NCBI RefSeq assembly: GCF_003334385.1
Contig: NZ_QOWN01000009.1
Length of the DNA: 64,000 bases
Direction: 5' to 3' (one strand)
Source of the DNA: Escherichia coli
GTDB taxonomy: Bacteria; Pseudomonadota; Gammaproteobacteria; Enterobacterales; Enterobacteriaceae
The notes under the pieces were generated by a model. It was given only the letters and a program-made list of their open reading frames with translations, made no database searches and was not told the DNA's origin. Position numbers and translations under genes: made by a program. Positions 22,305-25,512 of the stretch are shown here, piece by piece (the stretch's first letter is position 1; each line of letters opens with the position of its first letter).

Positions 22305-23408
22305 ATGAACATAAAGGGTAAAGCGTTACTGGCAGGATGTATCGCGCTGGCATTCAGCAATATGGCTCTGGCAGAAGATATTAAAGTCGCGGTCGTGGGC
22401 GCAATGTCCGGTCCGGTTGCGCAGTACGGTGACCAGGAGTTTACCGGCGCAGAGCAGGCGGTTGCGGATATCAACGCTAAAGGCGGCATTAAAGGCAACA
22501 AACTGCAAATCGTAAAATATGACGATGCCTGTGACCCGAAACAGGCGGTTGCGGTGGCGAACAAAGTCGTTAACGACGGCATTAAATATGTGATTGGTCA
22601 CCTCTGTTCTTCATCAACGCAGCCTGCGTCTGACATCTACGAAGACGAAGGCATTTTAATGATCACCCCAGCGGCAACCGCGCCGGAGCTGACCGCCCGT
22701 GGCTATCAGCTGATCCTGCGCACCACCGGCCTGGACTCCGACCAGGGGCCGACGGCGGCGAAATATATTCTTGAGAAAGTGAAACCGCAGCGTATTGCTA
22801 TCGTTCACGACAAACAGCAATACGGCGAAGGTCTGGCGCGAGCGGTGCAGGACGGCCTGAAGAAAGGCAATGCAAACGTGGTGTTCTTTGATGGCATCAC
22901 CGCCGGGGAAAAAGATTTCTCAACGCTGGTGGCGCGTCTGAAAAAAGAGAATATCGACTTCGTTTACTACGGCGGTTATCACCCGGAAATGGGGCAAATC
23001 CTGCGTCAGGCACGCGCGGCAGGGCTGAAAACTCAGTTTATGGGGCCGGAAGGTGTGGCTAACGTTTCGCTGTCTAACATTGCGGGCGAATCAGCGGAAG
23101 GGCTGCTGGTGACCAAGCCGAAGAACTACGATCAGGTTCCGGCGAACAAACCCATTGTTGACGCGATCAAAGCGAAAAAACAGGACCCAAGTGGCGCATT
23201 CGTTTGGACCACCTACGCCGCGCTGCAATCTTTGCAGGCGGGCCTGAATCAGTCTGACGATCCGGCTGAAATCGCCAAATACCTGAAAGCGAACTCCGTG
23301 GATACCGTAATGGGACCGCTGACCTGGGATGAGAAAGGCGATCTGAAAGGCTTTGAGTTCGGCGTATTTGACTGGCACGCCAACGGCACGGCGACCGATG
23401 CGAAGTAA
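22305..23408 (+). CDS. livJ: Periplasmic Leu/Ile/Val-binding protein LivJ
   Basis: Track ORF 22248..23408 trimmed to [23 protein letters not shown] (signal peptide), 367 aa; paralogue of livK. Confidence 0.93.
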
Positions 23409-23460
23409 TCATTAATCGGCAACTTTGGGTTGCCGCCAAATTGCTAATATCGAGTACGTT

Positions 23461-23567
23461 GCTTCATGCCGGATGCGGCGTAAACGCCTTATCCGGCCTA
23501 CAAGATCCAAAGAAATCAGTAAATTGCAACACACATTGTAGGCCTGATAAGCGTAGCGCATCAGGCA
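23461..23567. repeat. REP/BIME cluster (two inverted REP units) between livJ and panM
   Basis: gccggatgcggcgtaaacgccttatccggcctac and gtaggcctgataagcgtagcgcatcaggc, canonical REP palindromic units. Confidence 0.9.
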
Positions 23568-23595
23568 ATATCACTTTTGAAATCAAACTTGACGA

Positions 23596-23979
23596 TTAAC
23601 ACTTCTCCCAGCCGCCCTGTTGTGCCGTAAACCCCAGCGCCTGCATAAACGCCGTCATCACACCGCGATCTTCCACGCCTGCATCCGCCATCCACCAGCA
23701 TGAAACGCCAGGATTGTTACGCAAAACCTCTTCCAGCAGATATTGCCCCACACCGCGACGGCGGGTGACTTCCCGCACGCGCAGGGAATCCAGTGCCCCC
23801 TCGGTGCCGCTTAAGGTTACCCGCACGGCAGCGAGCAGGCGCTCGTTAAAACGCGCGGCGTAGATACGGTGGTTATCGTCAACCTGTAACGAGGAAGGGG
23901 AATACTCCGGCCAGATCTTTTGCAGGTCAATCCGGTCTTGGTCGCTAAATTTTTCTAATCGAATGATGGTCAGCTTCAT
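23596..23979 (-). CDS. panM: PanD maturation factor PanM/PanZ (GNAT fold)
   Basis: 127 aa ORF MKLTIIRLEKFSDQDRIDLQKIWPEYSPSSL...; acetyl-CoA-binding-like RRRGVGQYLLEE; between livJ and livK. Confidence 0.88.
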   Translation of the reverse strand: MKLTIIRLEKFSDQDRIDLQKIWPEYSPSSLQVDDNHRIYAARFNERLLAAVRVTLSGTEGALDSLRVREVTRRRGVGQYLLEEVLRNNPGVSCWWMADAGVEDRGVMTAFMQALGFTAQQGGWEKC

Positions 23980-24402
23980 GGGTAACCCGTGTAAATCACA
24001 AAAGTGGAACCAGTGTAGCGAAATAATTTAATCGGAGGCTTTCTCTTTTTTATTTCTTTTGGCAGGTGATTAATTTTTTAACAGCAATAATTACAAAGTT
24101 AAAACATTAGAGAATGAAAAATGTCCAGCATAATCCCCTGAATGATAGTGAATTATTCCGCCCTTTGTGCCGTTATTTTATGCTGACAAAGGCACTTTTT
24201 TCTGTTTATCTATCAATAAATTCAGAATATTATCTGTTCTTAATCGACTGAAAAATAGGGATTTTAATCGCTATTATCACAAAATACTGCGCTAACCCCT
24301 TAATCAGACAGGCAAAAACAGTGCAGTATAAAAAAAGAACAGTCTGATTTGTTAACACATAAAAACAAAGCAACACAACATCACGAATGGGGATTTTTGA
24401 CT

Positions 24403-25512
24403 ATGAAACGGAATGCGAAAACTATCATCGCAGGGATGATTGCACTGGCAATTTCACACACCGCTATGGCTGACGATATTAAAGTCGCCGTTGTCGGCGC
24501 GATGTCCGGCCCGATTGCCCAGTGGGGCGATATGGAATTTAACGGCGCGCGTCAGGCAATTAAAGACATTAATGCCAAAGGGGGAATTAAGGGCGATAAA
24601 CTGGTTGGCGTGGAATATGACGACGCATGCGACCCGAAACAAGCCGTTGCGGTCGCCAACAAAATCGTTAATGACGGCATTAAATACGTTATTGGTCATC
24701 TGTGTTCTTCTTCTACCCAGCCTGCGTCAGATATCTATGAAGACGAAGGTATTCTGATGATCTCGCCGGGAGCGACCAACCCGGAGCTGACCCAACGCGG
24801 TTATCAACACATTATGCGTACTGCCGGGCTGGACTCTTCCCAGGGGCCAACGGCGGCAAAATACATTCTTGAGACGGTGAAGCCCCAGCGCATCGCCATC
24901 ATTCACGACAAACAACAGTATGGCGAAGGGCTGGCGCGTTCGGTGCAGGACGGGCTGAAAGCGGCTAACGCCAACGTCGTCTTCTTCGACGGTATTACCG
25001 CCGGGGAGAAAGATTTCTCCGCGCTGATCGCCCGCCTGAAAAAAGAAAACATCGACTTCGTTTACTACGGCGGTTACTACCCGGAAATGGGGCAGATGCT
25101 GCGCCAGGCCCGTTCCGTTGGCCTGAAAACCCAGTTTATGGGGCCGGAAGGTGTGGGTAATGCGTCGTTGTCGAACATTGCCGGTGATGCCGCCGAAGGC
25201 ATGTTGGTCACTATGCCAAAACGCTATGACCAGGATCCGGCAAACCAGGGCATCGTTGATGCGCTGAAAGCAGACAAGAAAGATCCGTCCGGGCCTTATG
25301 TCTGGATCACCTACGCGGCGGTGCAATCTCTGGCGACTGCCCTTGAGCGTACCGGCAGCGATGAGCCGCTGGCGCTGGTGAAAGATTTAAAAGCTAACGG
25401 TGCAAACACCGTGATTGGGCCGCTGAACTGGGATGAAAAAGGCGATCTTAAGGGATTTGATTTTGGTGTCTTCCAGTGGCACGCCGACGGTTCATCCACG
25501 GCAGCCAAGTGA
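24403..25512 (+). CDS. livK: Periplasmic leucine-specific binding protein LivK
   Basis: Track ORF 24349..25512 trimmed to [23 protein letters not shown], 369 aa; first gene of livKHMGF. Confidence 0.93.

Follow-up and report, generated by a model that had tools for sequence, protein, structure and literature searches.

In Escherichia coli the periplasmic binding proteins LivJ and LivK deliver amino acids to a common importer, LivHMGF (PMC12708883). LivJ binds leucine, isoleucine and valine and, more weakly, alanine and threonine; LivK binds leucine, with a weaker uptake of phenylalanine and tyrosine (PMC12708883). PanM (PanZ), a protein reported only in Gammaproteobacteria (PMC4537548), is the maturation factor of PanD and acts as an acetyl-coenzyme A (CoA)/CoA sensor which activates PanD cleavage (PMC3398536, PMC4410942). 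The window analysed here, a 64-kb stretch of E. coli DNA to whose full length all coordinates refer, contains the genes of both binding proteins with panM between them (Table 1). The genes have the order, orientation and lengths known from the classical LIV-I/LS (leucine-isoleucine-valine and leucine-specific) locus as the 1990 work is cited in PMC12708883, and nothing substantial distinguishes the locus from the system as it is related there. It is almost certainly the canonical livJ-panM-livKHMGF locus of E. coli, in which livJ and livK are paralogues that arose by one tandem duplication of a binding protein gene adjacent to livH. The arrangement is already known, being the textbook LIV-I/LS system plus PanM, and no departure from it was seen anywhere in the window.

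The open reading frames (ORFs) of livJ, with its ATG at 22305, of panM and of livK agree base for base with the RefSeq coding sequences (CDS) of strain ECCHD184, to which the window is 100% identical. The gene order in that strain is ftsYEX, rpoH, livJ-panM-livK, livH, livM, livG, livF and ugpB. The allele in the window is not that of K-12 and shares 95-99% identity with most other E. coli; by megablast, the segment 22000-25700 has chromosomes that match it at 100%, and at least 80% of it is carried by 5417 of the 5426 complete RefSeq E. coli genomes. The original prediction had described two binding protein genes about 1 kb apart with panM between them on the opposite strand. This layout proved right, as did the gene names, on which NCBIfam, PDB and RefSeq agree, and the distance from the livJ stop to the livK start was measured as 994 nt. 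Only 47 nt separate the livK stop from the livH start, and livM, livG and livF then follow, which is the linkage expected of liv genes.

Both binding proteins exceeded the cutoff of the NCBIfam family NF011933 (477 bits), LivJ with 697 bits and LivK with 700 bits. LivJ matched PDB entry 1Z15/2LIV with E = 1e-229, the mature chain 1-344 corresponding to residues 24-367. Its next-best match, at an identity level of about 77%, was the leucine-specific binding protein (1USG/2LBP), as expected because LivK is its paralogue. LivJ and LivK differ little or not at all from their crystallised counterparts (1Z15 and 1USG, respectively), and the LivHMGF genes lie downstream as they should. Each precursor has a leader of 23 residues, the mature PDB chains beginning at residue 24, and the mature binding proteins comprise 344 or 346 residues. 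The reading frames can be extended upstream of the ATG by 19 codons in livJ (22248-22304, to a GTG) and by 18 codons in livK (24349-24402, to a TTG). These extensions span the C/A-rich leaders described below, and neither the mature-protein structures nor the RefSeq starts support them. PanM scored 190 bits against the NCBIfam equivalog NF033213 (cutoff 68) and matched PDB entries 4CRY chain B (PanZ) and 2K5T (YhhK) over its full length (residues 1-127, E = 7e-84); no difference from the PanM/PanZ of PMC3398536, PMC4410942 and PMC4537548 was apparent. No evidence contradicting the identification of livJ, panM and livK was encountered.

LivJ and LivK share 284 of 369 positions (77%, E = 0 by BLASTP), and a 27-residue peptide which had been quoted as common to them does occur at residues 94-120 of both. 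At the DNA level the genes are 73.8% identical over 1104 aligned bases with one indel of 6 nt, so that the pairwise alignment proposed in the original prediction put their likeness far beyond chance. The differences are distributed over the first, second and third codon positions as 61, 41 and 187. By the Nei-Gojobori method the proportion of synonymous differences (pS) was 0.665 and the synonymous divergence (dS) 1.63, which is effectively saturated, with a nonsynonymous divergence (dN) of 0.153 and a dN/dS ratio of 0.094. These values point to strong purifying selection on both copies. A third copy of livJ/livK was not found in the window by tblastn.

Age and origin of the duplication were approached by a cross-genus survey in which one genome per species was searched for the shared peptide YEDEGILMI by means of a degenerate pattern at the DNA level. 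LivJ, LivK, PanM, LivH and RpoH were mapped by tblastn onto the stretches obtained, which numbered at least 120. The order rpoH-livJ-panM(-)-livK-livH was present in at least 18 single stretches and in several contiguous split pairs, together covering at least about 15 genera of Enterobacteriaceae, among them Escherichia, Citrobacter, Enterobacter, Leclercia, Pluralibacter, Shimwellia, Mangrovibacter, Entomohabitans, Siccibacter, Cedecea and Phytobacter. Among the matches listed, all gammaproteobacterial loci from outside the Enterobacteriaceae had a single binding protein gene directly upstream of livH. They belonged to Morganella, an uncultured Enterobacterales metagenome-assembled genome (MAG), Aeromonas, Tolumonas, Pseudomonas/Stutzerimonas, Marinobacter, Neptunomonas and Competibacteraceae. 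No panM was detected in the single-copy stretches among these matches, nor did the matches listed include an intermediate livJ/panM/livK arrangement. The single gene of Pseudomonas, Stutzerimonas, Marinobacter, Aeromonas and Morganella is of the same family (55-71% identity) and stands immediately upstream of the livH homologue; in Pseudomonas the gene is known as braC. With one copy, and with no panM in the stretch, these systems differ from the E. coli locus and would represent the state before the duplication. Because the lone gene borders livH directly in every such locus, livK would occupy the ancestral position in the operon and livJ would be the displaced copy.

A neighbour-joining analysis of 63 full-length sequences, run over 367 columns with 200 bootstrap replicates, grouped the LivJ sequences in one clade and the LivK sequences of Enterobacteriaceae in another, each with 100% bootstrap support, and placed the two as sisters with 95%. 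The single-copy genes of Morganella, Aeromonas and Pseudomonas fell outside, those of Morganella and the MAG branching just outside the joint LivJ and LivK group. In this sample the duplication would thus have taken place after the split between Enterobacteriaceae and Morganellaceae and before the radiation of the sampled Enterobacteriaceae. Saturated synonymous sites, the lack of a conversion signal (see below) and the separate clades across genera argue for an old duplication, as had been predicted.

Several points limit the evolutionary detail of this account. The survey required an exact YEDEGILMI and thereby left Yersiniaceae, Erwiniaceae, Pectobacteriaceae and Hafniaceae outside the sample, so that the node of the duplication is not fixed, and the use of neighbour-joining only limits the evolutionary detail that can be read from the tree. 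panM lay between livJ and livK in all sampled Enterobacteriaceae showing both flanks, except in Klebsiella sp. BIGb0407 (L019), where an ORF for a 401-aa MFS-type transporter (643-1848, plus strand) stands beside panM at the position of livJ. The LivK of this strain nests within the LivK clade, next to Cedecea, and livJ has probably been lost or displaced in its lineage. Finally, the upstream regions of livJ and livK resembled each other only modestly more than shuffled sequences did (10 of 500 shuffles for the entire regions, 5 of 500 for the final 60 nt). This likeness could mean either that the duplication took in the leader or that both leaders are held by the same functional constraints without co-duplication.

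An old duplication would be only apparent if recurrent gene conversion kept livJ and livK alike. In such a case of concerted evolution the age estimate would mislead, and near-identical tracts could disturb mapping or assembly. A central stretch of the genes is in fact closer than the remainder, the best 100-nt window being 88% identical, and exact matches of 26 nt (alignment columns 649-674) and 25 nt (730-754) occur; megablast also finds a second place for livJ in certain other E. coli genomes, with 8039 places over 5426 genomes. However, the run of 26 nt is no longer than those obtained when codon columns are shuffled (P = 0.11), identical codons at conserved residues form runs of the length expected (P = 0.56), and a sliding scan gave a pS of 0.48-0.93 in all 40-codon windows, which leaves no signal of conversion. 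The similar central block coincides with a low proportion of nonsynonymous differences (pN 0.055-0.07), i.e. with constraint on the protein. Moreover, the reciprocal monophyly of LivJ and LivK across genera is the opposite of the pattern that concerted evolution produces. With no signal from the identical runs or the pS scan and a tree that speaks against it, gene conversion was rejected, and we consider its probability very low. It is also very improbable that livJ was acquired separately, by horizontal transfer of a homologue which landed beside panM. The unrelated and oppositely oriented gene between the copies might suggest such an event, as might the rpoH-livJ and livJ-panM spacers, whose lengths differ among genera (about 1.6 kb in Enterobacter, 1 kb in Phytobacter). 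Yet in the tree LivJ and LivK are mutual closest relatives, and both are nearer to the single-copy genes of Morganella and Enterobacterales (about 70-71% identity) than to those of any other sampled lineage. The two leaders have a C/A-rich element and a Shine-Dalgarno block in common, and the GC content (0.53-0.55) is unremarkable.

The spacers themselves showed some variation. In several genera (L013, L021, L028, L073 and L084; Enterobacter and relatives) rpoH and livJ are set apart by about 1.6 kb of extra sequence, compared with a spacer of 270 nt in E. coli. The livJ-panM spacer amounts to about 1 kb in Phytobacter (L089) and the livK-livJ spacer to about 3.3 kb in Superficieibacter (L010/L011). 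Outside the Gammaproteobacteria, Aestuariivirga litoralis (Alphaproteobacteria; L020, 62-2382) possesses a tandem pair of LivK-like genes with 43% and 34% identity to LivK, which suggests an independent tandem duplication in a distant lineage.

The ligand pockets were compared at the residues that contact isoleucine in LivJ, for which a list is available (PMC6983066). The LivJ of the window has the contacts Y18, L77, C78, S79, A100, A101, T102, A103, Y150, Y202 and F276. Eight positions, namely L77, C78, S79, A101, T102, Y150, Y202 and E226, which we take to be a ligand contact as well, are the same in both proteins, in keeping with contacts to the alpha-amino and carboxylate groups. They are invariant in 63 of 63 sequences with the exception of position 101, where outgroups have A or S. 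In the alignment 24 columns reach at least 90% fixation in each of the LivJ and LivK clades yet differ between the two, and at four contact positions the clades differ as Y18W, A100G, A103N and F276Y (LivJ/LivK). W18, G100 and Y276 are fixed in all 23 LivK sequences, and the corresponding LivJ states, Y18, A100 and F276, occur in all 13 single-copy outgroups. The nearest outgroups have the LivK state, N, at position 103, so LivJ would be derived only at A103. LivK therefore appears to have the more derived pocket, with three substitutions (W18, G100 and Y276) compared with one in LivJ. Such changes are consistent with LivK being a derived leucine specialist. After export to the periplasm LivJ and LivK close on their ligand. 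One permease (LivHM) and one ATPase (LivGF) serve both binding proteins, which makes up the high-affinity uptake systems LIV-I and LS.

It had further been feared that the similarity of the paralogues could mislead assembly or read mapping, and a check of mapping uniqueness had been suggested. The fear was not borne out. At a length of 27 or more the genes have no k-mer in common, and of 1080 25-mers they share only 3. For error-free livJ reads of 50, 100, 150 and 250 nt the best alternative placement left at least 4, 12, 22 and 40 bases, respectively, mismatched or unaligned, and in the megablast against 5426 E. coli genomes the median number of livJ places per genome was one. Only for very short sequences, such as a read or probe of less than about 27 nt, could a cross-match arise, and then at two spots. 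Mapping ambiguity of livJ and livK was therefore rejected by k-mer sharing, simulated reads and genome-wide megablast alike. The explanation offered for the near-duplicate antisense ORFs held: they occupy equivalent positions in livJ and livK and are 49% identical over 81 aa. The pair is a mechanical consequence of the paralogy of the sense strands, and nothing indicates that either ORF is a gene.

The true multi-copy hazard between livJ and livK is not the paralogues but a cluster of repetitive extragenic palindromic (REP) sequences, or bacterial interspersed mosaic element (BIME). Its palindromic arms are 23468-23481/23484-23497 and 23488-23503/23536-23551, and the surrounding segment of 121 nt (23455-23575) occurs no fewer than 40 times in an E. 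coli genome. Because of this cluster the megablast with 22000-25700 gave a median of 33 places per genome. As in other extragenic REP/BIME elements of E. coli, the palindromes are imperfect (about 35 nt) and exist in many copies per genome; unlike livJ and livK, the cluster plays no part in the paralogy. It gave a sub-threshold match to naRNA4, a REP-derived family. A second sub-threshold naRNA4/REP-like match (33 bits, E = 0.006) was found at 29369-29406 in the livF-ugpB intergenic region, and a search of 20900-29700 for known structured RNA families returned only such sub-threshold naRNA4 matches.

Both binding protein genes are targets of the R1 seed of the small RNA (sRNA) GcvB (PMC9299463; PMC2639303); this repression of translation, dependent on GcvB and Hfq, has been verified in Salmonella, and E. 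coli is listed as conserving it (PMC9299463). The C/A-rich elements of the livJ and livK leaders complement gcvB nt 64-80, in the G/U-rich R1 region (Table 1); the gcvB sequence was taken from an E. coli genome and confirmed by Rfam RF00022 (199 bits). Duplex energies of full-length GcvB with the leaders, a calculation which ignores intramolecular structure, did not go beyond shuffles in the case of livJ (29/300) and were set aside in favour of the perfect complements. Both leaders also carry GAATGGGGATT just upstream of the start codon, at the ribosome-binding site. Lrp and leucine control livK, and livJ and livK are members of the Lrp regulon (PMC2374795). With livJ transcribed alone and livK in its ancestral operon position, both copies would be subject to Lrp and leucine and, through the retained C/A-rich leaders, to translational control by GcvB. 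In the divergent panM/livK region the promoter scan gave one promoter-like site (24248-24277, plus strand), no more than shuffles give. The counts of promoter and terminator consensus matches were in general no greater than in shuffled sequence, and only the terminator at 22051-22080 was convincing. This strong intrinsic-terminator-like hairpin (13 pairs, then a T-run) immediately follows the rpoH stop and is presumably the rpoH terminator, separating rpoH from the promoter region of livJ.

Table 1. Features of the livJ-panM-livKHMGF locus (window coordinates)
Feature	Position	Strand	Description	Evidence
livJ	22305..23408	+	Leu/Ile/Val-binding periplasmic protein (LIV-BP); 367-aa precursor with 23-aa signal peptide; monocistronic	ORF, RefSeq CDS, NCBIfam, PDB
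livK	24403..25512	+	leucine-specific periplasmic binding protein (LS-BP); 369-aa precursor; heads livKHMGF	ORF, RefSeq CDS, NCBIfam
panM (panZ, formerly yhhK)	23596..23979	-	127 aa; GNAT-fold acetyl-CoA/CoA sensor triggering self-cleavage of pro-PanD	ORF, RefSeq CDS, NCBIfam equivalog, PDB
livH, livM, livG, livF	25560..29239 (25560-26486, 26483-27760, 27757-28524, 28514/28526-29239)	+	two permease and two ATPase subunits, common to both binding proteins	ORFs, RefSeq names
REP/BIME cluster	23461..23570	.	two inverted REP units; intergenic, where livJ and panM converge; outside the livJ/livK paralogy	
Antisense shadow ORF pair	22326..22601 (inside livJ); 24454..24699 (inside livK)	-		ORF list
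C/A-rich element, livJ leader	22258..22270	+	perfect 13-nt complement to GcvB R1 (gcvB nt 64-76)	
C/A-rich element, livK leader	24371..24384	+	perfect 14-nt complement to GcvB R1 (gcvB nt 67-80)	
Divergent panM/livK control region	23980..24402 (423 nt)	.	AT-rich, about 35-44% GC	

L019 apart, panM has a fixed place between livJ and livK in the sampled Enterobacteriaceae that show both flanks. panM is functionally unrelated to the flanking genes, and its position is a fact of synteny rather than a new system. A functional reason can be imagined, although we think it unlikely: the region of 423 nt which panM has in common with livK might couple the activation of PanD, and with it the synthesis of pantothenate and CoA, to the Lrp/leucine signal, while LivK and not LivJ evolved a new pocket (W18, G100 and Y276). 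Pantothenate/CoA synthesis uses alpha-ketoisovalerate, the precursor of valine. panD is listed among the verified targets of GcvB together with livJ and livK (PMC9299463), so that the sRNA repressing both flanking genes also touches the pathway of panM.

For practical purposes livJ and livK can be used as uniquely mappable genes, and the antisense ORF pair should stay out of gene calls. Beyond such annotation hygiene the locus has little significance, since it belongs to a classic transport system of E. coli that is characterised both structurally and genetically. The age of the duplication at the family level, the conserved synteny and LivK as a putative derived specialist are tidy illustrations of subfunctionalisation and specialisation rather than surprises.

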